DNA of 64,000 nt from positions 576,001 to 640,000 of the forward strand of contig BK006945.2 in assembly GCA_000146045.2 (NCBI GenBank), read 5' to 3'. The notes under the pieces are model-generated. The model was not told the origin of the DNA, searched no databases, and saw only the letters and a program-made list of their open reading frames with translations. The translations under genes were made by a program, and so were the position numbers. Below, one piece after another: positions 6,233 to 52,497 of the stretch (position 1 is the stretch's first letter; each line of letters starts with the position of its first letter). Source of the stretch: TPA_inf: Saccharomyces. Taxonomy: Eukaryota.

Positions 6233-9200
6233 TCATTGTAAGACGTCATTGAATTCGAATGAATGGTTAACATCATTGCCCATAATTCCTTCGATATCTG
6301 CCAATGCACTCTCACTAAATAAACCATTTTTAGTGAAACGAAGATTTTCAGCCGCTGCTTCCACCATACTTTGCCTTCTTCTCCACATGGAATTACTATT
6401 TTCATGGCTTAATGTATTGTCGAATTGCACAGGAGCGGTTAACGATGCTAGGATATCGGCGTCAGTATCTTCGATCACATGACCTTCTTGTGCATCATAA
6501 CCGTTAATATCACCTACAGACAGTAAGTCATTTTCATCTTTGCCCAAAATCTCATGAATTTCATCTAAACCAACACTTTTTGTTGAATTTTTCCTTGTAT
6601 TGCTGTCCACGGCAAGATCAGAATTATGAGGTATTAATGACGCATCTTCAGGTGCGTGAGAGGGAAGTTCATTCATAGGGGTATTTTCATTGGTTGTAAA
6701 ATCGGTACCGGTATTTATGTCGCTATGGCTGTTATTGTTACCGATGATCTCATGGCCATTGATTCCCAATTGTAAATTCATAGTTTCTTGCTCCTTTATT
6801 GCCTTTTGTCTTTGCTTTCTTATTTTAAGAAGCTTCTTTTTTTTCTTTAACTGCCTTTTTTTTTCAGTTTTTTTCCGTTGTAGCTCTTTCATCTTATCAA
6901 TCTTCTTTCTTGTTCTTTCATTACCAATATAGCCAATGGGAACTTTTCTGTTAGAATTTGCTGGTATCATGTACTCATCTTCTTCATAGGCATTAATACC
7001 CTTATTTCTAAATGCAGATAATGGAACCTTAGGAACTTCATACCAATCTGCAGCATGGCCATTTGTGCTTTTGCTATTAATTGCATCATTGTAATTGTTC
7101 TCCATATCGTCTGTGTGGGATGGTGAATCATCCTCCAATTCACTCATGTTTAGCAGCTCATTGAGTGTCAATTCGTCACCGTTATTGCCATTAGAGCTTC
7201 CCTCTCTTTTAACATCTGGGGTTTGAGCCCTTTGATGTTGCTCGCGAAGCTGTTGATGTTCTTGGATTAAGGCGTATAATGATTTAGTAGACAGACCATC
7301 AATAATACTAAAAGGTTTGTTGTCCGTCTCCCAAGTACCCAATTTTGGTGGACGTAATCCAACAACATTTGAACTTACGATTTCCTTTGCTTTTGAGCCA
7401 ATGTTTTTTGACCTTGAACTTGGGGGCGGTAGGTTATCATCTTCATCTGTGGATTCGTCATCAACGTACACAACAGTCTCTAAGAGATCATGTTTGCAAT
7501 CTTTGGATCCATCAGAATTTTCTTTGTCTGAGTTAGAACTTATCAAAGAGGAAGATCCATCGCTGTCGTAATGAAAGTAAAAAGAGTCTGGATCTAAATC
7601 ATCGATGTCTATGAACACATTTGTCACGCTGGAATCATCGTCGTCGTCTTCGTAATCGTCGTCCAGTTCTGTGCCAATGTCTAAGCTATCTGAATCTAGT
7701 GCCCTCAATTCTTCATCCGTGTCAGCATCGTGGGACGTTTCAGATTCACTGCATTCATCATCTGAAGGCATATGGGCAACATCCAACAAAATGTTATCAT
7801 ATTCATCGTCAGAAGAATCATATTTCCCGGAATTCAGGACCGTACTATGAGTGGATGGTTCCAGATCATCATTGGATTTTATCAAATTCGAGCCTTTATT
7901 CTTATGTTCAATATGACTTTTGCCCGATTTATGCCTGCCTTTCTTGCTCTTATGGCCACTATTTTCATCATCTGATTGAAAAAAAACATTGAAAATATAC
8001 TCATCATTGTCCACATTGGAGGTTGTTCTCGTACTAGGTTTTTGCGTCTTTTTATAGAGCTTTCGTCTTTGTTTCCTTTCTTCCTGTTCCCGTTTTTTGG
8101 CCTCTTTCTTTTTTAGTTTAGATAGTTTTTCATCATTTAGCATTAACGGTAAAGATGTACTCAAGGATAGCTTTGGCTCTGAACCATCGCCATAATAATA
8201 AAGATTTGCAAATTTAGGATCTTCATAAAACGGCATATCAAAATCAGACATTATTTCATCTTCTTCGTCATCTTCTTCATCATATCCGTTTTCTTGATTG
8301 TATTCATTTTGCAAAAATTTATTTTCAGCATCTTCTACAGGATCAGACCCTTCTTCGTGTATACTACCATCGAATGAGAGTTCGTCGTCATTTTGTAGCT
8401 CAGAAACAATGTTTTGTTCTTCTTCTTCCAATATGGGAAGATCGTCTTCCCCCGTTTCAAGATCTGTACCAATTTCTCCATGAGAATCTTCATTGTTAAT
8501 CACGTCAAAGTACGCATCCTGGTCAATATCATATTCAGATTCATCTGACTCTGAAATATTGGGAAATCGTAACTCATCGTTGTTACCTAACATCACCTTA
8601 GAATCCAGTTTATCTTCTTCATTACCATTGTTCTCTTTGTTTTTTAAATCCAAGACTTCTTCACCTATATCCTCGTTATAGCCTTCATTACCATTACCAA
8701 AACTAATGCCGTCGTCCTCTTTTTTGAATTTAAACGATAGCGCCTGTTGTGTAGTAGTAGTGCCTGAACCGTTTACTTCTTTTTTGTTTGATTCTTGTTG
8801 TTTTTGTTGCTCTTCTTTCTCTTTTTCTTTTTCTTCTTTCTGCTCTTCTTCATTTTCTTTCTTAGGGGATAGTTTAACTGATTTATTTTTGTTACTGTTC
8901 TCACGAGAGGAATAGAGTGTATTGCTATTTGTATTCATGGCAGATAAAGCTTTCATGGCTCTTTTCTTTCTTTGGGCCGTCAGTTTGACAAAATCTATAT
9001 TCTCGTCATCAGAACTTGTTTCGCTATCACTATCACTATCACTTCCGTCATCATCATCGTCGTCGTCGTCTTCGTCATCATCTTCTTCTTCTTCTTCACT
9101 CTCTTCTTCTTCATTTTCACTCTCTTCGCCATCTGTTACAGCTTGGTAATCGGATGACTCTGTGCCCTCGTCGTCATTGTCTATTTGCCTTTGTATAAGT

Positions 9201-9490
9201 TTACTTTTTTTTCCTTGGGAATTATTTGAAATGTTCTTTGCTTTTCTTTTAATTTTATGTGGGTTTGTACTTTTGTTTTTATCAGAATCAGATACGTCAC
9301 TCAAGGATGACTCAGAAGAGTATATAAGGCTAAATCTTCTTGGCCTCGTTGTACTCAGTGTGGGTGGTGATTGCCTGGACTTTGTATCGGATTCGCCCTT
9401 TTTTATGAGCCTTTTAATATTTGCTGGCAGTTTACCAGAATGTGTACTATGATTGATCGTACTTTTTCGAGGACTTTTTTTGCCTGCCAT
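6233..9490 (-). CDS. IFH1: Ribosomal-protein gene transcriptional coactivator (Fhl1-interacting), 1085 aa, extremely acidic/Ser-rich
   Basis: 1085-aa ORF with long poly-Asp/Glu tracts (EEEESEEEEEDDDEDDDDDDDDGSDSDSDSE), K/R-rich segments and a conserved FHB-type block. Length and position match YLR223C. Confidence 0.8.
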   Translation of the reverse strand: MAGKKSPRKSTINHSTHSGKLPANIKRLIKKGESDTKSRQSPPTLSTTRPRRFSLIYSSESSLSDVSDSDKNKSTNPHKIKRKAKNISNNSQGKKSKLIQRQIDNDDEGTESSDYQAVTDGEESENEEEESEEEEEDDDEDDDDDDDDGSDSDSDSETSSDDENIDFVKLTAQRKKRAMKALSAMNTNSNTLYSSRENSNKNKSVKLSPKKENEEEQKEEKEKEKEEQQKQQESNKKEVNGSGTTTTQQALSFKFKKEDDGISFGNGNEGYNEDIGEEVLDLKNKENNGNEEDKLDSKVMLGNNDELRFPNISESDESEYDIDQDAYFDVINNEDSHGEIGTDLETGEDDLPILEEEEQNIVSELQNDDELSFDGSIHEEGSDPVEDAENKFLQNEYNQENGYDEEDDEEDEIMSDFDMPFYEDPKFANLYYYGDGSEPKLSLSTSLPLMLNDEKLSKLKKKEAKKREQEERKQRRKLYKKTQKPSTRTTSNVDNDEYIFNVFFQSDDENSGHKSKKGRHKSGKSHIEHKNKGSNLIKSNDDLEPSTHSTVLNSGKYDSSDDEYDNILLDVAHMPSDDECSESETSHDADTDEELRALDSDSLDIGTELDDDYEDDDDDSSVTNVFIDIDDLDPDSFYFHYDSDGSSSLISSNSDKENSDGSKDCKHDLLETVVYVDDESTDEDDNLPPPSSRSKNIGSKAKEIVSSNVVGLRPPKLGTWETDNKPFSIIDGLSTKSLYALIQEHQQLREQHQRAQTPDVKREGSSNGNNGDELTLNELLNMSELEDDSPSHTDDMENNYNDAINSKSTNGHAADWYEVPKVPLSAFRNKGINAYEEDEYMIPANSNRKVPIGYIGNERTRKKIDKMKELQRKKTEKKRQLKKKKKLLKIRKQRQKAIKEQETMNLQLGINGHEIIGNNNSHSDINTGTDFTTNENTPMNELPSHAPEDASLIPHNSDLAVDSNTRKNSTKSVGLDEIHEILGKDENDLLSVGDINGYDAQEGHVIEDTDADILASLTAPVQFDNTLSHENSNSMWRRRQSMVEAAAENLRFTKNGLFSESALADIEGIMGNDVNHSFEFNDVLQ

Positions 9491-9920
9491 TTCGTTCTGT
9501 TTCCAGTTTGCCGGTTGTTTTTTCCTTATTTGTTTATTTGCTTCCTTGTTGAATTTCCTTCAATTTCAACAAGCTTGAAAATGAATTTCGTAGAATGAAT
9601 ATTACTATGTTTGAAATGGTTATTGCTTATGATGCTCACCGAAGTTAAAAAAAATATTATAGGTTTGTCCTATGTTAGAATTGTGGAAAGGGAGGAATGT
9701 AATAAATAAGCAGTAATTAAATATAGCCTTTTGAAGAGTTCCTCCTTTTAATTTCTTGTAGCAAGTGTTTCGAATGTATTCAAATATTACCAATGATTAT
9801 ACAAATACTTACAGCAAGTCAATTAAAGAGCCGTAAAAGCTAAACGTCAAAACGTGTAAAGCACCTATTATCTAGTCTCTTTTCCCTAGTTGTACTTTAA
9901 ATCAATTTAGTGATGAGATG

Positions 9921-9942
9921 AAAAAAAAAAAAAAAAAAAAAA
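9921..9942. promoter_or_regulatory. 22-nt homopolymeric poly(dA:dT) tract in the divergent IFH1/UCC1 intergenic region
   Basis: An uninterrupted run of 22 A is seen directly, about 430 bp upstream of the IFH1 ATG. Such tracts act as nucleosome-excluding promoter elements in yeast (established knowledge). Confidence 0.6.
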
Positions 9943-10463
9943 GAATTCCAACGAAAAAGAAACGACGGGCAGGGCAACCTTTAGAGATTTCAATCCGTAT
10001 AAAGAGATGTAGTAGGCAGTACGGGTAACATCGTCACAATTCATAATGGAACTATCTAGCTTTTGCTTGATTGCAAAGTTCTACACCCGTTGATACTTCA
10101 AACATCTTTGCAATACGTAGGTAGGGGTCGCGTACTAGCAGCCTCCTAGTTAAGTGTATCTTTCAATCGCATTACGGAACAACTAGGCATCCCGAACCCC
10201 ACACGGAAAAATCGGAACAATAACTGAAAATTTCCTTTTTCTTTTTTTTGCTCTTCAAAGTCTCTGCCCCTCTATTGCGTACTCGATTGATTTTTTTATC
10301 AAAGGCCATCTCAGACAAGTAGATCTACATTGGAGTTTCTCATAATATTATCACTATCGGAAGGTAGCATAACCTTTAATAGAGTTTCCGCTGTTTGCTT
10401 GGCTCGTTTTTTTGTTTGTACTATGCCTATTGGCGCAAAGAAGACAGAGTGTGCAAACAAGAG

Positions 10464-14561: not shown

Positions 14562-16043
14562 TTAATTGGAGGGATCAGTAAAGGTTTGATATATACGTGA
14601 CAAAATGTCCGGCAAGTTCCCTATGTTATCCTGATAGCAATATTTCCAATACTCAATCCAATGATCATCTGTTTCTGGATCTTTAGGTGAGTCAAAGCGC
14701 AGTTTCTGCTTCAATTTTGTTTTCATCTTGTCTATTATTATTCTGGGATGTCTGAATTGGTAAGTTCGGGGATGATAATCGTCCAGAGATTCTGAACAGT
14801 CATTATCTTCGGATATTTTTTCAGCAACAAGTAATTTCCCCTCCATAGCAGTCAACAGTACCTTAGGTAGTTGGTAGTCAGTTACTTCATCAGGATTGTC
14901 ACAAGCATCAATAATATTTTCGATGATACATAAGCATTCTATGGTCAATTTATCCATTTCAGATGATGCTTCGAATGTGTATTCATTATCTTGCATATAG
15001 TATAGTTTTAATACATAAAAAAACTGGATAACTTTAAATTGAACACCTGATGAAAGTAATAAGCCTTCCAGAATTTTATTCAAGCAGCATATAATCTGAG
15101 GGTCATTTTTAAGTTTGAAAGTTATTGACAGAATATTTTTTTGAATTGTTTCATTCATGTGGTTACTATCTACTAATAGTCCGATTCTGGGACCGAACAC
15201 ATCACATTCACACTCCCAAATTTTTCCTCTCAGAATGGCTAACATTTCTTCGATTTCTGCACAATACTGAAAAAACTGACTAAAAACAAAATTTTCATTG
15301 ACCTTTGAAAATTTAAGCGTTATCTTATCCATCGCATCGAAAGCGACGCAGTATAACGCCTCAATAACATCTACCTCGTCGAGTGACCAGTGCCATTGAA
15401 GTGACTTGGTCTCCTCATTTAAATCGAAGCCATGGGAATAATTAGGGTTTTGTCTTTTGATAAAATTTTTTAGATTATTGCCTACCAATGCTTCATTTTC
15501 TTTCAAATCAATTAGAAAACAGTGGCAACACAACATGGATATAAATAGTTCGCAAAGTTCATAAAAAGCTCCAATTTGCTCGTCTGCGATACTTGCAAAT
15601 AGTCTTGTCCTTTTTGAGTACGCAATGAATTGTAAGCACCAGCGAAAAGATTGAAATGCGAGGTTATAATTTTTATCTACATGACCAAATACTCCTTGAA
15701 ATAATTTTATATATAGTACCAGTTTTAATTTATTCATTGTCTCTGGATCGGCTTTATCTTTCTTCATTATCTTGATGATATGTTTTGGACCCATCGCAAG
15801 ATTAAAGTTTAAAATTTTGGCCAGCGCTTCTTTCAGAAGGTTATTGGTTTGAATCCTTAATGGTGAACCTTTTTTCATGATCGAAAGATTATAAAAAACT
15901 ACATGGTACGGAATATAAAGAGCCAAAAAGTCCCTTATCAAATCACCATTATATGCTTGTAAATTTAGGATAGTCTTCACAGCTTTTTTAAATTCTTTTC
16001 TTAAACTTTTTTTAAAAGTTTGATAGTCGACGTCTTTATTCAT
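14562..16043 (-). CDS. ADY4: Meiosis-specific spindle-pole-body outer-plaque component (493 aa)
   Basis: 493-aa ORF with ATG start, convergent with BUR2 (stops 20 bp apart). Length and position match YLR227C. The assignment is from synteny. Confidence 0.65.
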   Translation of the reverse strand: MNKDVDYQTFKKSLRKEFKKAVKTILNLQAYNGDLIRDFLALYIPYHVVFYNLSIMKKGSPLRIQTNNLLKEALAKILNFNLAMGPKHIIKIMKKDKADPETMNKLKLVLYIKLFQGVFGHVDKNYNLAFQSFRWCLQFIAYSKRTRLFASIADEQIGAFYELCELFISMLCCHCFLIDLKENEALVGNNLKNFIKRQNPNYSHGFDLNEETKSLQWHWSLDEVDVIEALYCVAFDAMDKITLKFSKVNENFVFSQFFQYCAEIEEMLAILRGKIWECECDVFGPRIGLLVDSNHMNETIQKNILSITFKLKNDPQIICCLNKILEGLLLSSGVQFKVIQFFYVLKLYYMQDNEYTFEASSEMDKLTIECLCIIENIIDACDNPDEVTDYQLPKVLLTAMEGKLLVAEKISEDNDCSESLDDYHPRTYQFRHPRIIIDKMKTKLKQKLRFDSPKDPETDDHWIEYWKYCYQDNIGNLPDILSRIYQTFTDPSN

Positions 16044-16518
16044 TATACGTGAGCCGACAATTTGTGACTATGATCAATAAATAGGGCATATATGTACAAT
16101 TTTGTTTGTATTTCCTCCTGTTGGAGATGAGTAGTAACATAATCATGGGTAAATCGTCTTCTCTGTGACAGCGCAAACCTTTACGCCCAATAAAAATTTG
16201 ACAGAAAAATTCTCTATAGTGCCGGGGCACTTCATTCAAATTTAGTAAATAGAACTTTTGTGGCAATGGACAGGTTCAGCTACTGCATTTCATATGCGAA
16301 TTCGCTGCTATACCAGTTTTGTGGCCCCAAAATCACCCGGCAGACAGGGTCTGGTAACACGTCATAATTCTTTCCCTACTTACGAACGTAAAGGAAGCTT
16401 TGCCAACTTTTAGAGAAATGGCTACATTAATTATGAACTGGAGTGAAACAACTGTGCTAAAATGATACGATCTAGTAATTTATAGGAAAAAGTAAAGATG
16501 GCAAAAAACAAAAAATAA

Positions 16519-16619
16519 TGAGAGCTAAGGGATTCGAACCCTTGCATCCGAAGATATCAGAGATTTTAGAGGTTAAACCCACCTAAATCTGACGCCTTAA
16601 ACCACTCGGCCAAACTCCC
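16519..16619 (-). tRNA. tL(UAG): tRNA-Leu (anticodon UAG) with a 19-nt intron
   Basis: The reverse complement reads GGGAGTTTGGCCGAGTGGTTTAAGGCGTCAGATTTAGG[TGGGTTTAACCTCTAAAAT]CTCTGATATCTTCGGATGCAAGGGTTCGAATCCCTTAGCTCTCA. It has class-II long-variable-arm architecture, the anticodon loop UUUAGGC gives UAG, and an A box (TGGCCGAGTGG) and B box (GGTTCGAATCC) are present. Confidence 0.85.
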
Positions 16620-16721
16620 ATTGTATGTTGAAAACGATGGATTATACAAGCCATTGGGTTAGCCATTTATTTCTAAAGTCTTTTTCTTGGCTGATTACTT
16701 ATTAATGAGAAATTGGTAAAG

Positions 16722-17035
16722 TTTGACATAATTGTTGGGATTCCATTGTTGATTAAGGCTATAATATTATGTATAAGAATAAACTAGAAGTTCTCCTCGA
16801 GGATATAGAAACTCTCAAATGGAATCGATATTTCTACACAATAATATTACGATTATTTCTCCTTCCGTTTTATATTTTTCATTATCTTATTACATTATCA
16901 ATCCTTCCATTTCAGCTTCCTTTAACTTCGGTTGCATCTTCTCATACCTTATGTCATCATCTAACTACCCGTATATGATAATATACGCGTAGTAAGACTA
17001 CTAGTTAATGACGATAGTTGATTTTTATTCCAACA
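16722..17035 (-). mobile_element. Solo LTR of Ty4 type (tau element), about 314 bp
   Basis: The minus-strand sequence begins TGTTGGAATAAAAATCAACTATCGTC (plus 17035 downward) and ends ...GGAATCCCAACAATTATGTCA near 16722. It has internal tau-like blocks (CTCGAGGAGAACTTCTAG, ATTGATAATGTAAT) and no internal coding region. Confidence 0.7.
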
Positions 17036-17139
17036 ATTAAGTTAGCAAATGTGGGAAAGCATAAATTATTTGGGAAATGCATATATCTCCGCGATTTCCC
17101 TAGCTTAGGAGCTCTTTGGGATCGATATCATTTTTGTTG

Positions 17140-17144
17140 GAATA
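17140..17144. repeat. Left copy of the Ty1 5-bp target-site duplication GAATA
   Basis: GAATA lies immediately 5' of the LTR start TGTTGG at 17145, and an identical GAATA sits at 23063–23067 immediately 3' of the right LTR. Confidence 0.85.
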
Positions 17145-17478
17145 TGTTGGAATAGAAATCAACTATCATCTACTAACTAGTATTTACATTACTAGTATAT
17201 TATCATATACGGTGTTAGAAGATGACGCAAATGATGAGAAATAGTCATCTAAATTAGTGGAAGCTGAAACGCAAGGATTGATAATGTAATAGGATCAATG
17301 AATATAAACATATAAAATGATGATAATAATATTTATAGAATTGTGTAGAATTGCAGATTCCCTTTTATGGATTCCTAAATCCTTGAGGAGAACTTCTAGT
17401 ATATTCTGTATACCTAATATTATAGCCTTTATCAACAATGGAATCCCAACAATTATCTCAACATTCACATATTTCTCA
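17145..17478 (+). repeat. Ty1 5' LTR (delta), 334 bp
   Basis: Starts TGTTGGAATAGAAATCAACTATCATC and ends ...CATATTTCTCA. It contains the TYA initiation codon at 17438. Confidence 0.9.
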
Positions 17479-18760
17479 TGGTAGCGCCTGTGCTTCGGTT
17501 ACTTCTAAGGAAGTCCACACAAATCAAGATCCGTTAGACGTTTCAGCTTCCAAAACAGAAGAATGTGAGAAGGCTTCCACTAAGGCTAACTCTCAACAGA
17601 CAACAACACCTGCTTCATCAGCTGTTCCAGAGAACCCCCATCATGCCTCTCCTCAACCTGCTTCAGTACCACCTCCACAGAATGGGCCGTACCCACAGCA
17701 GTGCATGATGACCCAAAACCAAGCCAATCCATCTGGTTGGTCATTTTACGGACACCCATCTATGATTCCGTATACACCTTATCAAATGTCGCCTATGTAC
17801 TTTCCACCTGGGCCACAATCACAGTTTCCGCAGTATCCATCATCAGTTGGAACGCCTCTGAGCACTCCATCACCTGAGTCAGGTAATACATTTACTGATT
17901 CATCCTCAGCGGACTCTGATATGACATCCACTAAAAAATATGTCAGACCACCACCAATGTTAACCTCACCTAATGACTTTCCAAATTGGGTTAAAACATA
18001 CATCAAATTTTTACAAAACTCGAATCTCGGTGGTATTATTCCGACAGTAAACGGAAAACCCGTACGTCAGATCACTGATGATGAACTCACCTTCTTGTAT
18101 AACACTTTTCAAATATTTGCTCCCTCTCAATTCCTACCTACCTGGGTCAAAGACATCCTATCCGTTGATTATACGGATATCATGAAAATTCTTTCCAAAA
18201 GTATTGAAAAAATGCAATCTGATACCCAAGAGGCAAACGACATTGTGACCCTGGCAAATTTGCAATATAATGGCAGTACACCTGCAGATGCATTTGAAAC
18301 AAAAGTCACAAACATTATCGACAGACTGAACAATAATGGCATTCATATCAATAACAAGGTCGCATGCCAATTAATTATGAGAGGTCTATCTGGCGAATAT
18401 AAATTTTTACGCTACACACGTCATCGACATCTAAATATGACAGTCGCTGAACTGTTCTTAGATATCCATGCTATTTATGAAGAACAACAGGGATCGAGAA
18501 ACAGCAAACCTAATTACAGGAGAAATCTGAGTGATGAGAAGAATGATTCTCGCAGCTATACGAATACAACCAAACCCAAAGTTATAGCTCGGAATCCTCA
18601 AAAAACAAATAATTCGAAATCGAAAACAGCCAGGGCTCACAATGTATCCACATCTAATAACTCTCCCAGCACGGACAACGATTCCATCAGTAAATCAACT
18701 ACTGAACCGATTCAATTGAACAATAAGCACGACCTTCACCTTAGGCCAGGAACTTACTGA
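17438..18760 (+). CDS. TYA: Ty1 TYA Gag capsid protein (440 aa)
   Basis: ATG lies within the 5' LTR. The 440-aa ORF ends ...[13 protein letters not shown] and has characteristic Ty1 Gag sequence throughout. Confidence 0.95.
18740..18746 (+). other. Ty1 programmed +1 ribosomal frameshift heptamer CUU-AGG-C
   Basis: CTTAGGC lies in the TYA frame (CTT at 18740, AGG at 18743) 15 nt before the TYA stop. Slipping to GGC at 18744 enters the TYB frame, which is the frame of the 18987–22706 track ORF (coordinates ≡ 0 mod 3). Confidence 0.9.
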
Positions 18761-21700
18761 ATCTACGGTAAATCACACTAATCATTCTGATGATGAACTC
18801 CCTGGACACCTCCTTCTCGATTCAGGAGCATCACGAACCCTTATAAGATCTGCTCATCACATACACTCAGCATCATCTAATCCTGACATAAACGTAGTTG
18901 ATGCTCAAAAAAGAAATATACCAATTAACGCTATTGGTGACCTACAATTTCACTTCCAGGACAACACCAAAACATCAATAAAGGTATTGCACACTCCTAA
19001 CATAGCCTATGACTTACTCAGTTTGAATGAATTGGCTGCAGTAGATATCACAGCATGCTTTACCAAAAACGTCTTAGAACGATCTGACGGCACTGTACTT
19101 GCACCTATCGTACAATATGGAGACTTTTACTGGGTATCTAAAAGGTACTTGCTTCCATCAAATATCTCCGTACCCACCATCAATAATGTCCATACAAGTG
19201 AAAGTACACGCAAATATCCTTATCCTTTCATTCATCGAATGCTTGCGCATGCCAATGCACAGACAATTCGATACTCACTTAAAAATAACACCATCACGTA
19301 TTTTAACGAATCAGATGTCGACTGGTCTAGTGCTATTGACTATCAATGTCCTGATTGTTTAATCGGCAAAAGCACCAAACACAGACATATCAAAGGTTCA
19401 CGACTAAAATACCAAAATTCATACGAACCCTTTCAATACCTACATACTGACATATTTGGTCCAGTTCACAACCTACCAAAAAGTGCACCATCCTATTTCA
19501 TCTCATTTACTGATGAGACAACAAAATTCCGTTGGGTTTATCCATTGCACGACCGTCGCGAGGACTCTATCCTCGATGTATTTACCACGATACTAGCTTT
19601 CATTAAAAACCAATTTCAGGCCAGTGTCTTGGTTATACAAATGGACCGTGGTTCTGAGTATACTAACAGAACTCTCCATAAATTCCTTGAAAAAAATGGT
19701 ATAACTCCATGCTATACAACCACAGCGGATTCCCGAGCACATGGAGTCGCTGAACGACTAAACCGTACCTTATTAGATGACTGCCGTACTCAACTGCAAT
19801 GTAGTGGTTTACCGAACCATTTATGGTTCTCTGCAATCGAATTTTCTACTATTGTGAGAAATTCACTAGCTTCACCTAAAAGCAAAAAATCTGCAAGCCA
19901 ACATGCTGGCTTGGCAGGACTTGATATCAGTACTTTGTTACCTTTCGGTCAACCTGTTATCGTCAATGATCACAACCCTAACTCCAAAATACATCCTCGT
20001 GGCATCCCAGGTTACGCTCTACATCCGTCTCGAAACTCTTATGGATATATCATCTATCTTCCATCCTTAAAGAAGACAGTAGATACAACTAACTATGTTA
20101 TTCTTCAGGGCAAGGAATCCAGATTAGATCAATTCAATTACGACGCACTCACTTTCGATGAAGACTTAAACCGTTTAACTGCTTCATATCATTCGTTCAT
20201 TGCGTCAAATGAGATCCAAGAATCCAATGATCTTAACATAGAATCTGACCATGACTTCCAATCTGACATTGAACTACATCCTGAGCAACCGAGAAATGTC
20301 CTTTCAAAAGCTGTGAGTCCAACCGATTCCACACCTCCGTCAACTCATACTGAAGATTCAAAACCTATATCTGAAATCAATCTTCGTGCACCCAGAGAAG
20401 TTGACCCCAACATATCTGAATCTAATATTCTTCCATCAAAGAAGAGATCTAGCACCCCCCAAATTTCCAATATCGAGAGTACCGGTTCGGGTGGTATGCA
20501 TAAATTAAATGTTCCTTTACTTGCTCCCATGTCCCAATCTAACACACATGAGTCGTCGCACGCCAGTAAATCTAAAGATTTCAGACACTCAGACTCGTAC
20601 AGTAACAATGAGACTAATCATACAAACGTACCAATATCCAGTACGGGTGGTACCAACAACAAAACTGTTCCGCAGATAAGCGACCAGGAGACTGAGAAAA
20701 GGATTATACACCGTTCACCTTCAATCGATGCTTCTCCACCGGAAAATAATTCATCGCACAATATTGTTCCTATCAAAACGCCAACTACTGTTTCTGAACA
20801 GAATACCGAGGAATCTATTATCGCTGATCTCCCACTTCCCGATCCGCCTCCAGAACCTCCTACCGAATTATCAGACTCCTTTAAAGAACTTCCACCGATC
20901 AATTCTCGTCAAACTAATTCCAGTTTGGGTGGTATTGGTGACTCTAATGCCTATACTACTATCAACAGTAAGAAAAGATCATTAGAAGATAATGAAACTG
21001 AAATTAAGGTATCACGAGACACATGGAATACTAAGAATATGCGTAGTTTAGAACCTCCGAGATCGAAGAAACGAATTCACCTGATTGCAGCTGCAAAAGC
21101 AGTAAAATCAATCAAACCAATACGAACAACCTTAAGATACGATGAGGCAATCACCTATAATAAAGATATTAAAGAAAAGGAAAAATATATCGAAGCATAC
21201 CACAAAGAAGTCAACCAACTATTGAAAATGAATACTTGGGACACTGACAAATATTATGACAGAAAAGAAATAGACCCTAAAAGAGTAATAAACTCAATGT
21301 TTATCTTCAACAAGAAACGTGACGGAACTCATAAAGCTAGATTTGTTGCAAGAGGTGACATTCAGCATCCTGATACGTACGATACAGGTATGCAATCCAA
21401 CACTGTACATCATTATGCGTTGATGACATCCCTGTCACTTGCATTAGACAATAACTACTATATTACACAATTAGACATATCTTCGGCATATTTGTATGCA
21501 GACATCAAAGAAGAATTATACATAAGACCTCCACCACATTTAGGAATGAATGATAAGTTGATACGTTTGAAGAAATCACATTATGGATTGAAACAAAGTG
21601 GAGCGAACTGGTACGAAACTATCAAATCATACCTGATAAAACAGTGTGGTATGGAAGAAGTTCGTGGATGGTCATGCGTATTTAAGAATAGTCAAGTAAC

Positions 21701-22706
21701 AATTTGCTTATTCGTTGATGATATGATATTGTTCAGCAAAGACTTAAATGCAAATAAGAAAATCATAACAACACTCAAGAAACAATACGATACAAAGATA
21801 ATAAATCTGGGTGAAAGTGATAACGAAATTCAGTACGACATACTTGGCTTAGAAATCAAATATCAAAGAGGTAAATACATGAAATTAGGTATGGAAAACT
21901 CATTAACTGAGAAAATACCCAAATTAAACGTACCTTTGAATCCAAAAGGAAGAAAACTTAGCGCTCCAGGTCAACCAGGTCTTTATATAGACCAGGATGA
22001 ACTAGAAATAGATGAAGATGAATACAAAGAGAAGGTACATGAAATGCAAAAGTTGATTGGTCTAGCTTCATATGTTGGATATAAATTTAGATTTGACTTA
22101 CTATACTACATCAACACACTTGCTCAACATATACTATTCCCCTCTAGGCAAGTTTTAGACATGACATATGAGTTAATACAATTCATGTGGGACACTAGAG
22201 ATAAACAACTGATATGGCACAAAAACAAACCTACCGAGCCAGATAATAAACTAGTCGCAATAAGCGATGCTTCATATGGTAACCAACCATATTACAAGTC
22301 ACAAATTGGTAACATTTTCCTACTCAACGGAAAAGTGATTGGAGGAAAGTCGACAAAGGCTTCGTTAACATGCACTTCAACTACAGAAGCAGAAATACAC
22401 GCAGTCAGTGAAGCTATTCCGCTATTGAATAACCTCAGTCACCTTGTGCAAGAACTTAACAAGAAACCAATTATTAAAGGCTTACTTACTGATAGTAGAT
22501 CAACGATCAGTATAATTAAGTCTACAAATGAAGAGAAATTTAGAAACAGATTTTTTGGCACAAAGGCAATGAGACTTAGAGATGAAGTATCAGGTAATAA
22601 TCTATACGTATACTACATCGAGACCAAGAAGAACATTGCTGATGTGATGACAAAACCTCTTCCGATAAAAACATTTAAACTATTAACTAACAAATGGATT
22701 CATTAG
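18744..22706 (+). CDS. TYB: Ty1 TYB Pol (protease, integrase, reverse transcriptase, RNase H), expressed as a Gag-Pol fusion via the +1 frameshift (1320 codons in the +1 frame; the fusion is about 1755 aa)
   Basis: The +1 frame stays open from 18744 to the stop at 22706 (I translated 18744–18990 by hand and found no stop). It has the integrase HHCC zinc motif (H..H...CPDC) and DDE region, RT YVDD-like [10 protein letters not shown], and a C-terminal RNase H. The track ORF start at 18987 is a TTG artefact. Confidence 0.9.
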
Positions 22707-22728
22707 ATCTATTACATTATGGGTGGTA

Positions 22729-23062
22729 TGTTGGAATAGAAATCAACTATCATCTACTAACTAGTATTTACATTACTAGTATATTATCATATACGGTGTT
22801 AGAAGATGACGCAAATGATGAGAAATAGTCATCTAAATTAGTGGAAGCTGAAACGCAAGGATTGATAATGTAATAGGATCAATGAATATAAACATATAAA
22901 ATGATGATAATAATATTTATAGAATTGTGTAGAATTGCAGATTCCCTTTTATGGATTCCTAAATCCTTGAGGAGAACTTCTAGTATATTCTGTATACCTA
23001 ATATTATAGCCTTTATCAACAATGGAATCCCAACAATTATCTCAACATTCACCCATTTCTCA
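22729..23062 (+). repeat. Ty1 3' LTR (delta), 334 bp
   Basis: The TGTTGGAATAGAAATCAACTATC...CCATTTCTCA copy appears by eye to match the 5' LTR, consistent with a young insertion. Confidence 0.9.
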
Positions 23063-23067
23063 GAATA
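23063..23067. repeat. Right copy of the Ty1 target-site duplication GAATA
   Basis: See the left copy at 17140–17144. Confidence 0.85.
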
Positions 23068-23249
23068 GATGTGAACTCTTTGGTTTTCGGTCAGACTAGA
23101 CGTCAGTAAATAGTTTGAAAGCGAGAATAAAAAATAATTGTAATGGATAATGAAATGCCGTTAATTGGTAGTATTAATGAAGAATGAATATCCATCTTTT
23201 CATGCAATATAAGAGAAAAATATAAAACTGCTGAGATACGGACAAAAAT

Positions 23250-23536
23250 CACCTATGTACAAGTATTTATTTTATCATATACGGCGTAAGAAGATGACGT
23301 CAAAAATTGAGGAACAGTCATCGAATTTAATGGAAGCTGAAATGCAATGATCGATAATGTAATAGGATAATGAGTAACAACAATTAAATTGAAGAAGAAA
23401 AAATAGTGATGCTCTGTAGAGATGTCATTTCCCTTCAATGTTGCTATATTCTCCTGGCACATTAACGTATGCCCACTATTAGTGCCTTTAACAATAGAAT
23501 CCCAACAATTATTCAATTATTCACCCATAAAATCCA
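23250..23536 (+). mobile_element. Solo delta-type LTR (diverged Ty1/Ty2 family), about 290 bp, 5'-truncated or diverged at its start
   Basis: Colinear homology to delta: ...TTATCATATACGGCGTAAGAAGATGACG / GAAGCTGAAATGCAATGATCGATAATGTAATAGGATAATGA / ...AATCCCAACAATTATTCAATTATTCACCCAT. There is no adjacent coding sequence. Confidence 0.7.
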
Positions 23537-23699
23537 CCTATTTTTCAAGAAAGCATTAGATTTGCTCATTATTATTTATTATTAACATAAAAGTGCCTTT
23601 GGTAGTTACTATGTATTTAGTGTGGTGACCCGTATTCCTCATATATATAAGTAGCTACCACATTATGTTCAATCAATATATCTTTAACTCAGCTCAGCA

Positions 23700-23990
23700 T
23701 TGTCTGAATTGCTCGCTTAAGTTTTTATCCTGTGATTAGTGCATTTACACATAAACGTATACCGGGTGTACCTCAATATACTATGTAAACATTTAAATTG
23801 TTACCATAACAACTCATGTTATTATTAATGATCACTTGACAACATATAAAAACGAAAGAAGAAATAATAATACTACTATGTATAAGTATCCATTTCCTTT
23901 TGTGGATTCCTCAAAATGGCCAGTATATTCGGAAGTAACATAATGTAGTTATTCATCGATGAGGTTCACATTCTGTAGCACTGACCCATC
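23700..23990 (+). mobile_element. Degenerate LTR-like remnant (delta-related, internally deleted)
   Basis: Blocks resemble the 3' half of delta in the same order: ...AACATATAAAAACG..AATAATAATACTAC..TCCATTTCCTTTTGTGGATTCCTCAAAATGG..AGTATATTCGGAAGTA... compared with delta ...AACATATAAAATGATGATAATAATATT..GATTCCCTTTTATGGATTCCTAAATCC..AGTATATTCTGTATACC. The boundaries are uncertain. Confidence 0.35.
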
Positions 23991-24018
23991 GAAAGAAAAG
24001 AGTTTATATTTTGATAAA

Positions 24019-26463
24019 TTACATAAAAGCTGAAAAGTTTGTAGTGGTCATAGAAGGTAACCCACCTCCTAAGAAATCCAGCATCATATGCATACCACCA
24101 CCTCCACTATACTCATCAACATCCTGTGGTAAAACCTGTGATACGCTATCCAAGAACCACACTTTGTCCTTTATTTCTGTGGTATAACCTCTCAATAATG
24201 TATAGTAAGACCTCATTATTCTCATGGCCCCTAGGTCGCCTGTCATTAATAATGCTAAAAAAGTCCTATCCAAAAGAGCAGGAAATGAGAAGACTCTCAA
24301 CATAAAATCTAATTGATTTTTTTCGCGATGCAGTTTGTCCAAATATGCTAAAGTTATCAAGTACGGTGAATCAATTTCTACGGGATATAAATCTGCTATA
24401 CTTTCGTCAAAGCATACGAGTTCCGATATCGTATTATTGTTATTTCCATCACCATTATTGCTATTGTCATTATCATTATTATGATTACTTTGGTTGATTA
24501 CAGCTTCACCCAAATCACTCAAGTCAACAGAAATTAAGTTATAAAACTTGGATGTCTCCGACAGGGGCCATACAGCAGTTAGTATAGTTACGGCGCCTTT
24601 AACATGGAAAATCCATGCCGTTGGTGAGCTGCTTGAAGCATTTGCCAATGAATCTAGGATTAATATTAGAGCACTAGCCACCAAAGCATCTGTGTTATCA
24701 TCTGAAATTTCGAGCACAGCCTCTCTTAACAGTCTCAACGCTTCTAAACGATGACTAGACACGTAGTTATCCAAGCCGGCTTCAGTTCTGGACAAATGAG
24801 TGGCGCTAAAAGCCAAAATTGTATGCATCAAGAAGGGAAAATGAAAAGCCAAATCCGGAATATAAGTGCTCCATACTTCAGGACCAGAAATGCCTGCTTC
24901 GGTTATGGTATGCCATACGTCAGTACAATAGTGATGAAAAAGTTTTAGATCTATCAAATTCAAATTTGATTTTCTAGACAGCCCGACTAATTCAGGGACT
25001 AGTCGTGAGGCTGATGAAGCGTTTGAATGGGGAGAAGATTGTTGTTGAGTGTGAGAATTTGATGAACGTGGAGACAATGCCTCCGAGTTGGATAACAGGT
25101 CACCCATTGGGGACGTCTTCAAAGTAGGAGAATTTCCCAAAGCGGTCCTGTTGTCCGGTATAGATAACAATGACTTTGTAGAGGTTACATTGGATACTCC
25201 CGTTGAAGGGGACGCAATGTTTTGATCTATGGAAGGTTTGGACAACGTGTGTGGGGGACTGATTGTGAGACCGGTATTGTCGATTATCAAGTTTTTGTTA
25301 TGAGATAGTATATCAGAAGCAGTAACTTTATTTTCGTTTCCGTTAAGGGGGTTATTGCCCGAATTAACAGCATCCGTCTTAGTATTATCCAATGGGTTCT
25401 TCGTAAATTGCTTGTTTTTGTCCTCCTGTTCCTGTTGCATATTTGCGAGTGCCTCCTCTGCTGTGCTAACTTTGATTGCTCTGTTATTAGATGTAGCAAA
25501 CTTTCCGAGGCCAAATAACTCTTGAAACTCAGAGGCCATTCCATTTGCAGCACCGTATGGAAATAATGTATTGAAGCTCTTCATATTGAAGTTCAAGCCC
25601 ATCTTGTTCAATTGCGCTAGCTGGTCGAAGGGAATATTGCTGAAGGGGGACTGTGTTCCTTGTTGTTGTGGAATTTGCTGATTTTGTTGTTGAAGTTGTG
25701 GCTGCTGCAATCCATTCGTCACCGAATTTAGCCTACCAGGCGAGAGTAAGCCGTTAAGGCTACTTGATAAATTCATGGCCGTTGATTGAAAACTAGGTGT
25801 TATCGGTATACTCAATGGCGAATTCCCTGGTAGGGCCATGTTTGGGTGGTTGTTGTTTATCATTGAACTGGGAGCTGTTTGTGTTATATTATTATGCGCT
25901 TCAGCTCCATTTGCACTGCTGTTGGTACTGTTACTGGTGTTATTCACTAAACTCGCTAATAGGTGCGGTAACAAAAGATTCTCCATATTATTGGATACGG
26001 ATGGAGGAACGCTATTAGGGGAATTGCTTTGTTCATCAGTACCAACATGTGGCAACAGTTGCTGCTGTAACTGAACTTGCTGTTGTTGACGAAATTGCTG
26101 TTCTTGTTGATGATGAAGTTGCTGTTGTTGTTGTTGTAACATGATGGCATTGTCACTCAGATTTTTCTTGCCTACCCTATCGTGGACCGCTGATGCAAAT
26201 TTTGACGACGAAGAATCTTTTCTTCTTCTTGGCTGAATAGGGCTGTAAACACAGTCCAATTTCATGTTTGTACATTTCTTGCAAAATGGTTTGCCTTCAT
26301 CACATTTTACTCTTCTTCTTTTACAATTGTCGCAACCGGTCTTGGACTTGTTATGAAACTTCCGTTTCCCTGTCGAAGTCTTGCTCACTTTCTTGCCCCC
26401 AACCTCAATCAGTTCAGCATCCTTCTCTCTTTCTTGTCCAGCATTCCCATCATCGGATGTCAT
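24019..26463 (-). CDS. ECM22: Zn(II)2Cys6 zinc-cluster sterol-regulatory transcription factor (814 aa)
   Basis: N-terminal [28 protein letters not shown] binuclear zinc cluster, long poly-Gln tracts and a conserved C-terminal regulatory domain. Length of 814 aa and position match YLR228C (its paralog UPC2 lies elsewhere). Confidence 0.85.
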
Positions 26464-29299: not shown

Positions 29300-29432
29300 T
29301 GCTCGAGGTGGGGATTGAACCCACGACGGTCGCGTTGCTTTTAAAGGCCTGTTTGAAAGGTCTTTGGCACAGAAACTTCGGAAACCGAATGTTGCTATAA
29401 GCACGAAGCTCTAACCACTGAGCTACACGAGC
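29300..29432 (-). tRNA. tI(UAU): tRNA-Ile (anticodon UAU) with a roughly 60-nt intron
   Basis: The reverse complement reads GCTCGTGTAGCTCAGTGGTTAGAGCTTCGTGCTTAT[AGCAACATTCGGTTTCCGAAGTTTCTGTGCCAAAGACCTTTCAAACAGGCCTTTAAAAGC]AACGCGACCGTCGTGGGTTCAATCCCCACCTCGAGCA. It has an A box TAGCTCAGTGG and a B box GGTTCAATCC. Confidence 0.85.
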
Positions 29433-52382: not shown

Positions 52383-52497
52383 GGTTGTTTGGCCGAGCGG
52401 TCTAAGGCGCCTGATTCAAGAAAATATCTTGACTGCAGTTAACTGTAGGAATACTCAGGTATCGTAAGATGCAAGAGTTCGAATCTCTTAGCAACCA
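52383..52497 (+). tRNA. tL(CAA): tRNA-Leu (anticodon CAA) with a roughly 32-nt intron
   Basis: GGTTGTTTGGCCGAGCGGTCTAAGGCGCCTGATTCAAG[AAAATATCTTGACTGCAGTTAACTGTAGGAATA]CTCAGGTATCGTAAGATGCAAGAGTTCGAATCTCTTAGCAACCA. Class-II tRNA with an A box TGGCCGAGCGG and a B box AGTTCGAATCT. Confidence 0.9.

Follow-up and report, generated by a model that had tools for sequence, protein, structure and literature searches.

Introduction

Integration of Ty1, Ty2 and Ty4 directed by Pol III has been described for a targeting window of about 1 kb upstream of tRNA genes, together with the Pol III host factors that take part in it (PMC5911963, Table 1). For one such gene, tL(UAG)L1, Carr, Bensasson & Bergman annotated in 2012 the gene itself, YLRCdelta9, YLRWTy1-2, YLRCtau1, YLRWdelta12 and an unnamed Ty1-LTR fragment (PMC3511429). 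Gross chromosomal rearrangements repeatedly have a breakpoint in the YLRCdelta9/YLRWTy1-2/YLRWdelta12 "multiple Ty locus", which has served at least three times as a Ty912 translocation partner (PMC3102749). Moreover, Ty1 elements carrying hybrid Ty1/2 LTRs are a known class, cited in the 2012 annotation (PMC3511429).

Here, we analyzed this cluster in a 64,000-nucleotide stretch of DNA (the window), which corresponds to chromosome XII of S. cerevisiae S288C; its ADY4, ECM22 and YLR225C genes all match S288C exactly. The Ty/LTR cluster is real, already catalogued and ordinary. It was reportedly deleted on purpose in the design of synthetic chromosome XII.

Results

The cluster lies on the 5' side of a minus-strand tRNA-Leu(UAG) gene, as a previous sequence-only reading of the window had proposed. 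This gene (16519-16619) was recovered with the Rfam model RF00005 at 49.8 bits over the full model (1-71); it contains an intron of about 19 nt, and its anticodon was taken from the Rfam alignment. ARAGORN returned no tRNA genes over the whole window and missed tRNA-Leu(UAG) because the gene carries an intron, while Rfam recovered three tRNA genes in the window, each with an intron. The gene sits in the gap between ADY4 and ECM22 with its 5' side pointing toward rising coordinates, and both S. paradoxus and S. kudriavzevii carry it in the same place at 99% conservation. The cluster is an accessory filling of the ADY4-ECM22 gap, as had been proposed; stripped of Ty material, the gap would measure only about 0.8 kb.

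LTRs were assigned to families by a search against the six Ty LTR references of Carr et al. 2012 (File S1, PMC3511429), in which the Ty4 LTR measures 371 bp, using a word size of 7 and E ≤ 0.01. All Ty sequences on the resulting map are upstream (5') of tRNA-Leu(UAG), and at least two Ty families are represented, namely, delta (Ty1/Ty2-type) and tau (Ty4); both points had been anticipated. The sigma (Ty3), Ty3p and Ty5 LTR references had no match anywhere in 16000-24100, and no LTR match was obtained in the 475 bp on the 3' side of the gene (16044-16518). The rest of the 64 kb outside the cluster contained no LTR beyond one Ty3p match of chance level (7996-8052, E = 0.003). No LTR was recognizable upstream of the remaining two tRNA genes of the window, and so targeting may be uneven or the debris may have been lost there. 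Delta and tau LTRs begin with identical first eight bases, TGTTGGAA, and visual inspection does not distinguish them. The identity between LTRs must likewise be counted rather than estimated.

The element closest to the tRNA gene is YLRCdelta9 (16706-17035, minus strand), a full-length Ty1-type delta solo LTR that aligns to TY1_LTR 1-338 at 85% identity, compared with 77% to TY2_LTR and 79% to the LTR of the resident Ty1. It is flanked by a 5-bp target-site duplication, ATTAA, at 16701-16705 and 17036-17040, and stands 82 to 86 bp upstream of tRNA-Leu(UAG). The full-length alignment, the TG...CA ends, the duplication and the lack of internal Ty sequence are those of a delta solo LTR. The segment 16722-17035 had been read as a Ty4 tau, which it is not; it gave no match to the Ty4 LTR reference at E ≤ 0.01 with a word size of 7, and the element of which it is part aligns end to end with TY1_LTR. 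YLRCdelta9 has been recorded as a solo LTR fixed in 24/24 strains (Carr et al. 2012, File S2, PMC3511429). A clean empty site is found in S. paradoxus where YLRCdelta9 stands in S. cerevisiae, and YLRCdelta9 postdates the split of the two species.

Further upstream, the proposed complete plus-strand Ty1 was confirmed as YLRWTy1-2, an intact full-length element of 5918 bp (17145-23062, YLR227W-A/B), by its LTR pair, its target-site duplication, its domains and an open Gag-Pol frame. The duplication is the 5-bp sequence GAATA at 17140-17144 and 23063-23067. Both LTRs are on the plus strand and measure 334 bp; the 5' LTR (17145-17478) has TG...CA ends and includes the start codon of TYA (17438), and the 3' LTR spans 22729-23062. 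The two are identical at 332 of 334 positions, and the only mismatches are at the adjacent positions 325 and 326, which read CC in the 3' LTR and AT in the 5' LTR. Two independent assemblies, L011 and L014, show the same two differences. The LTR of YLRWTy1-2 is a Ty1/2 hybrid that joins a Ty2-like U3 (1 to ~243; ~98%) to a Ty1-like R-U5.

The internal region is of Ty1 type. A primer-binding site, TGGTAGCGCC (17479-17488, plus strand), adjoins the 5' LTR and is complementary to the 3' end of the initiator tRNA-Met, which we take to be the primer from what is established for Ty1. A polypurine tract, TGGGTGGTA (22720-22728, plus strand), abuts the 3' LTR. An initiator tRNA-Met primer-binding site and a polypurine tract are expected at these two places in Ty1. 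The TYA (Gag) open reading frame (17438-18760, plus strand) encodes 440 aa with a PF01021 match at E = 1e-233; the identity of this Gag to S288C Ty1 Gag entries indicates a Ty1-type and not a Ty2-type gag. The +1 ribosomal frameshift heptamer CTTAGGC (18740-18746, plus strand) lies within the TYA/TYB overlap. The TYB (Pol) frame (18720-22706, plus strand) is open throughout and contains rve, SH3_retrovirus and RVT_2 domains. They follow the copia order of protease, integrase and reverse transcriptase/RNase H, with rve (residues 147-247) preceding RVT_2 (765-971). The Gag-Pol fusion comprises 1755 aa without an internal stop. Every feature of a full-length Ty1 (Ty1-copia/Pseudoviridae) that was looked for is present in YLRWTy1-2.

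YLRWTy1-2 has been listed as full, active and present in 2 of 26 strains (Carr et al. 2012, PMC3511429). The name YLRWTy1-3 was considered for this element and rejected, since the table of the same study places YLRWTy1-3 about 57 kb away (PMC3511429). In our strain comparison, YLRWTy1-2 was present in L011 and L014. In 8 of 10 strains, and likewise in L012 and L013, the site was exactly empty (2052 to 2053 bp) and contained a single GAATA, and the Ty1 was absent also from the other two of the 10 strains; a precise empty site was thus found at 10 of 12 natural-strain loci. The Ty1 had been called young on the grounds that its LTRs appear identical. Its youth is supported by the presence/absence polymorphism, but the pairwise alignment, with 2 mismatches in 334 positions, contradicts the grounds given.

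Beyond the Ty1, a Ty4 solo LTR on the minus strand, YLRCtau1, is split by a delta. Its 3' part (23139-23231) aligns TY4_LTR 287-356 to 23228-23160 at 76% identity, and its 5' part (23548-23844) aligns TY4_LTR 1-277 to 23844-23562 at 75% (E = 1e-49), with a TGTTG terminus at 23844-23840. Excision of the intervening delta gives 72.5% identity over TY4 positions 1-367. This reconstituted alignment reaches TY4 position 367 at 23146, and the outer boundary was placed between 23139 and 23160. The tau fragment 599171-599230 of Carr et al. 2012 corresponds to 23169-23228 of the window, and YLRCtau1 is fixed in 29/29 strains (PMC3511429). The nested element is YLRWdelta12 (23232-23547, plus strand), a diverged delta solo LTR with 67 to 72% identity to the TY1 and TY2 LTRs. 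A diverged plus-strand delta had been claimed at 23250-23536, and the alignment upholds this with limits of about 23232 to 23547. YLRWdelta12 is described as a "1-nested LTR" fixed in 27/27 strains (Carr et al. 2012, PMC3511429). A search for target-site duplications around YLRCtau1 and YLRWdelta12 yielded none that was recognizable, and simple integration of these two elements is accordingly a reading from family membership.

An ancient delta-like fragment on the plus strand, unnamed in SGD, abuts the tau at 23845-23961 and corresponds approximately to Ty1 LTR positions 164-300. Positions 164-236 of TY1_LTR are matched at 77% (E = 4e-10), and the extended alignment scored 40 compared to 16.8±2.8 for the null. 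It is the unnamed Ty1-LTR fragment, fixed in 25/25 strains, of Carr et al. 2012 (PMC3511429). A single degenerate delta-like fragment had been proposed at 23700-23990; only 23845-23961 is of this kind, and the first half belongs to the Ty4 tau, whose true place and interruption by a nested delta had gone unnoticed.

Comparison with other genomes provided relative ages. S. paradoxus shares the tau/old-delta junction, and the old fragment is orthologous there, as are the first ~66-74 nt of the 5' part of YLRCtau1. The picture of a young Ty1 surrounded by old debris holds. The label "old tau" fits the true YLRCtau1 but not the element to which it had been attached, YLRCdelta9, which postdates the S. 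paradoxus split. S. paradoxus lacks the delta12 stretch and has a species-specific delta in its place. L008 and L009 contain three further Ty2-type solo LTRs, each with its own perfect 5-bp duplication. At least three or four independent insertions had been postulated, and we count at least five in S288C and at least three more, with duplications of their own, in other strains. LTRs also occur upstream of the same tRNA gene in S. kudriavzevii and S. eubayanus. A Ty4 fragment was seen in S. eubayanus and is a candidate ortholog only.

The target into which YLRWTy1-2 was inserted itself resembles an LTR end. The pre-existing sequence TGTTGGAATA (17135-17144, plus strand) was read from the sequence and is the same in the empty-site strains; joined to 23068-23069 it gives TGTTGGAATAGA, identical to the first 12 nt of the YLRWTy1-2 LTR. 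S. paradoxus has conserved the TGTTGGAA portion of the target and has an independent delta of its own that begins 2 nt away; relative to the Ty1 insertion point of S288C, the distance is no more than 2 nt. It is very unlikely that the LTR-terminus-like TGTTGGAATAGA acts as a base-precise micro-hotspot of integration. In a duller reading, TGTTGGAATAGA could be a vestige of an ancient delta that lacks annotation, namely of its 5' end. When 17120-17144 joined to 23068-23169 was aligned as the 5' half of such a delta, the score fell within the shuffle null, and delta alignment of the 71 to 93 nt following TGTTGGAATAGA was not significant. If the vestigial delta is true, the Ty1, the tau and delta12 lie inside it as a three-level nest.

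Discussion

The interval is almost certainly a Pol III-targeted landing pad upstream of tRNA-Leu(UAG) that has been hit repeatedly by Ty1, Ty2 and Ty4 over millions of years. The landing-pad zone is taken here as the ~1-kb nucleosomal region upstream of this chromosome XII gene. Measured on the locus as it was at the time of each insertion, the insertions lie 82 to ~700 bp upstream of 16619. The general reading made beforehand, of repeated Pol III-directed integration followed by LTR-LTR recombination to solo LTRs, is supported.

The identities and boundaries of the elements, their duplications, their nesting and their presence or absence in strains and species are observed directly, and the nesting, combined with the occurrence of each element in other genomes, gives an order of events. 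An ancient delta would have arrived first, leaving 23845-23961 as its remnant. A Ty4 would then have entered beside or into it and collapsed to the solo tau, and both of these steps predate the split of S. cerevisiae and S. paradoxus. In a third step, a Ty1/Ty2-type element would have entered the tau and collapsed to delta12. After the split, a Ty1-type insertion 82 to 86 bp from the tRNA gene gave rise by collapse to delta9, which then went to fixation. Finally, and very recently, a Ty1 with hybrid Ty1/2 LTRs integrated in the S288C lineage 521 to 525 bp upstream, duplicating GAATA, and this element, YLRWTy1-2, has stayed intact and coding since then. As suggested by the literature, Ty1 integrase would be targeted by binding the Pol III subunits Rpc40/AC40, Rpc53, Rpc34 and Rpc31 at upstream nucleosomes, and the solo LTRs would be products of LTR-LTR recombination.

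Passive build-up of LTRs in a tolerant gene-free gap, without direction by Pol III, is very unlikely. It would fit the two LTR-free tRNA genes of the window and the fixed, neutral-looking state of most old LTRs. However, at least eight independent S. cerevisiae insertions all fell within ~700 bp on the 5' side of the tRNA gene as the locus stood at insertion, and LTRs occur on the same side in three other species. In addition, neither the 3' side nor the other intergenic regions of the 64 kb contain an LTR, the gap freed of Ty material is only ~0.8 kb long, and targeting is experimentally well established (PMC5911963).

We consider it equally improbable that YLRWTy1-2 entered at the LTR-end-like TGTTGGAATAGA by Ty1 cDNA recombination or gene conversion and not by integrase. 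The 12 nt shared by the empty site and the start of its LTR could point in that direction, and the pair of adjacent LTR differences hints at a past conversion of this copy. Such an entry is, however, at odds with the perfect 5-bp duplication, with the precise empty site and its single GAATA and with a 3' junction that lacks LTR-like homology; furthermore, 12 nt is far below the homology usual for cDNA recombination. Lastly, the earlier map, with a tau at 16722-17035 and a single degenerate delta at 23700-23990, is almost certainly wrong: the shared LTR start TGTTGGAA could mislead an unaided reader, but 16706-17035 is a full-length TY1_LTR match with none to Ty4, 23562-23844 matches the Ty4 LTR, and the published annotation names YLRCdelta9 and YLRCtau1 (PMC3511429).

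Apart from its correct annotation the locus is of little consequence, although it illustrates cleanly how Ty elements integrate near a tRNA gene that they target. It offers a datable series, in which some insertions predate the separation from S. paradoxus, others came later and are fixed, and others again are specific to strains.

Among known systems, Pol III-directed integration of Ty1, Ty2 and Ty4 (PMC5911963) shares with this locus the upstream side, both orientations and the 5-bp duplications. Positions -1 to -4 of tRNA-Leu(UAG) are free of Ty3/sigma. YLRWTy1-2 has the Ty2-like U3, the Ty1-like R-U5 and the Ty1 internal region and Gag of the hybrid-LTR class and adds nothing new to it; its recombination point is near LTR position 243. 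The locus of the rearrangement study (PMC3102749) is identical to ours, and that work treats the consequence of the cluster and not its origin. SGD and Carr et al. 2012 (Files S2/S3) give the same five elements, with the same order, strands, nesting and fixation status, and the sacCer2 coordinates of Carr et al. match those of the window once 576002 is subtracted throughout. Compared with theirs, our limits are slightly wider (tau, ~23139 and 23844; old fragment, 23961), and the present analysis adds the cross-species dating and the target-site duplications of the elements.

The tRNA-Leu(UAG) gene and its upstream interval

The flanking open reading frames were identical to S288C proteins, namely Ady4p (14562-16043, minus strand), Ecm22p (24019-26463, minus strand) and YLR225C, and window coordinates differed from those of Carr et al. 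2012 (PMC3511429, Files S2/S3, sacCer2) by a constant offset of 576002; the protein matches place the window on S. cerevisiae chromosome XII. The tRNA-Leu(UAG) gene was recovered on the minus strand at 16519-16619, as expected from the sequence-only reading, by a match to the full Rfam tRNA model (49.8 bits). The Rfam alignment gave the anticodon UAG and a 22-position insertion after the anticodon loop, indicating that the gene bears an intron; ARAGORN called zero tRNAs across the whole window. Since the 5' side of the gene points to rising coordinates, all DNA up to ECM22 lies upstream of it. This ADY4-ECM22 interval measures 7975 bp; tRNA and Ty sequences make up 7172 bp of it and leave about 800 bp of unique DNA, in agreement with the proposal that accessory DNA fills the gap.

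Two further tRNA genes in the window, tRNA-Ile(UAU) (29300-29432, minus strand, intron of about 60 nt) and the intron-bearing tRNA-Leu(CAA) (52383-52497, plus strand), were likewise found by Rfam and missed by ARAGORN. In contrast to tRNA-Leu(UAG), neither has a recognisable Ty LTR upstream.

Element map of the cluster

The whole window was searched by sensitive blastn with six LTR references (Ty1, Ty2, Ty3, Ty3p, Ty4 and Ty5; File S1 of Carr et al.). Two families, delta and tau, were present in the interval, as had been claimed, and none of the Ty3, Ty3p and Ty5 reference LTRs was found there. Outside the interval, no LTR of any of these families was detectable in the 64 kb; a faint Ty3p match at 7996-8052 (71% over 59 nt, E = 0.003) is most likely due to chance.

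The LTR adjoining the tRNA gene had been read as a Ty4 tau. By its alignments, this sequence (YLRCdelta9, 16706-17035, minus strand) is instead a delta solo LTR: it matched Ty1 LTR positions 1-338 at 85% and the Ty2 LTR at 77%, and sensitive blastn with the Ty4 LTR gave no match at 16706-17035. It is flanked by ATTAA on either side and shows 79% identity over its full length to the LTR of the resident Ty1.

The tau solo LTR (YLRCtau1, minus strand) lies further upstream, in two pieces, at 23844-23562 (Ty4 positions 1-277, 75%, E = 1e-49) and 23228-23160 (Ty4 positions 287-356). Its TGTTG terminus is at 23844-23840, and its outer 3' boundary falls somewhere within 23139-23160. The pieces are separated by a diverged delta on the plus strand (YLRWdelta12, 23232-23547), which had been recognised from the sequence and which aligned to the Ty1 and Ty2 LTR references at 67-72%. 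When 23232-23547 was taken out, the tau pieces fused into a single alignment covering Ty4 positions 1-367 at 72.5%, with YLRWdelta12 nested in it. The additional plus-strand delta fragment proposed near ECM22 does exist, at 23841-23911 (Ty1 LTR positions 164-236, 77%, E = 4e-10), but 23700-23844 belongs to tau and not to delta. This old fragment can be followed in alignment as far as 23961, near LTR position 300 (score 40; shuffle null 16.8±2.8).

An intact Ty1 with hybrid LTRs

A complete Ty1 (YLRWTy1-2) occupies 17145-23062 on the plus strand, as previously read, with 334-bp LTRs, a GAATA duplication, a PBS (TGGTAGCGCC) and a polypurine tract (TGGGTGGTA). TYA encodes 440 aa matching PF01021, CTTAGGC at 18740 provides the frameshift heptamer, and the Gag-Pol fusion of 1755 aa is uninterrupted, with integrase preceding reverse transcriptase. 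Its Gag is an exact match to S288C entries that carry the name Ty1 Gag. The LTRs showed 95.4% identity to the Ty2 reference (positions 1-324) and only 87% to the Ty1 reference; in a three-way alignment they were Ty2-like to about position 243 and Ty1-like beyond, placing them in the known Ty1/2 hybrid-LTR class cited in Carr et al. (PMC3511429).

The two LTRs had been taken as identical, and this was the reason given for the element's youth. They differ only at adjacent positions 325-326, which read AT in the 5' LTR (17469-17470) and CC in the 3' LTR (23053-23054). These positions lie in U5, inside TYA codon 11, which encodes His from the 5' LTR and would encode Pro in the 3' LTR state. The identical pair of differences was found in two independent assemblies (L011 and L014), and thus is not a sequencing error. 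Both AT and CC are common among Ty1 LTRs (the reference sequence; chrVII_s211 in the data of Carr et al.), so that a short tract of gene conversion seems likelier than a pair of point mutations. The age of this copy would therefore be poorly estimated from the divergence of its LTRs.

Presence and absence of the elements

The age of the elements was addressed with ECM22-ADY4 intervals from other genomes, including ten strains with the same Ecm22p. In eight of these ten, the intergenic length was 2052-2053 bp, which matches the window once the Ty1 and a single GAATA copy are subtracted (0-10 mismatches); in L012 and L013, both flanks were 100% identical and overlapped by one GAATA. The Ty1 was present in L011 and L014, and Carr et al. 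scored it in 2/26 strains (PMC3511429). The Ty1 is thus recent and restricted to S288C relatives.

The older elements were found in every natural strain examined and were scored as fixed by Carr et al. (PMC3511429). The S. paradoxus sequence runs continuously across the YLRCdelta9 site, and this clean empty site indicates that YLRCdelta9 is younger than the species split. Three parts align colinearly with S. paradoxus at 71%: the initial 66-74 nt or so of tau, the point where tau meets the old delta fragment, and the flank to the ECM22 stop codon. Tau and the old fragment thus predate the split. S. paradoxus lacks the stretch where YLRWdelta12 would sit, and this element can thus be dated only as younger than tau. 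The claim of at least three to four insertion events was borne out.

The empty site at the Ty1 target (17135-17144 plus 23068-23069) reads TGTTGGAATA^GA, the first 12 nt of the Ty1's own LTR (TGTTGGAATAGA). TGTTGGAA is conserved in S. paradoxus (L020, intergenic 771-781), where an independent minus-strand delta starts 2 nt off. Since the 12 nt share the strand of the old delta fragment and are colinear with it, they may be the vestigial 5' end of that delta, in which case both Ty1 and tau would be nested in it. The sequence between the 12 nt and the fragment gave no significant alignment to delta.

Repeated insertion upstream of the tRNA gene

We observed three further solo LTRs of Ty2 type, each on the minus strand and with a perfect 5-bp duplication: two in L008 (GCA_030036395.1), at about 16715-16719 (GTTTG) and 23182-23186 (GAATG), both 98% identical to the Ty2 reference, and one in L009 (GCA_000978285.2), at about 23246-23250 (AAATC). 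They occupy different sites in one common zone and are independent insertions on one landing pad. With their duplications intact, they and YLRCdelta9 are the expected residue of LTR-LTR recombination within single elements. The independent minus-strand delta of S. paradoxus begins at most 2 nt from the S288C Ty1 site, and delta-like LTRs lie upstream of the orthologous tRNA gene in S. kudriavzevii and S. eubayanus. The S. eubayanus intervals (L023/L024) also carry a 3' fragment of a Ty4 LTR just upstream of tRNA-Leu(UAG), and the gene itself in tandem duplicate (intergenic 450-550 and 621-721, 97-98% to the window's copy).

All insertions lay 82 to about 700 bp upstream of the tRNA gene, measured on the locus as it stood at each event, and no insertion was found on its 3' side. 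This spacing fits the zone of about 1 kb on the upstream side of Pol III genes that is published as the target of Ty1, Ty2 and Ty4 (PMC5911963). Targeting would operate through contact between integrase and Pol III, as proposed in the literature; Rpc40, Rpc53, Rpc34 and Rpc31 are the contacts reported for Ty1 integrase (PMC5911963).

Comparison with published annotation

The feature is real, and its sequence-only reading was right in outline, apart from one misassigned family and one incorrect reason. Everything of substance is already annotated or published (Carr et al. 2012, PMC3511429; SGD names; PMC3102749), and the cluster, a known rearrangement hotspot (PMC3102749), is of minor interest. 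A Sc2.0-type synthetic chromosome XII (L015; GCA_033956085.1, CP135955.1), with six loxPsym sites placed after stop codons, carries a clean designer deletion (locus 9318-10000) of exactly 16520-23843, that is, the tRNA gene, YLRCdelta9, the Ty1 and tau with YLRWdelta12. The deletion independently mirrors the standard annotation; the old delta fragment, which has no SGD name, was kept. That fragment is nevertheless listed by Carr et al., whose annotation holds these exact five elements on the same strands and with the same nesting (PMC3511429).
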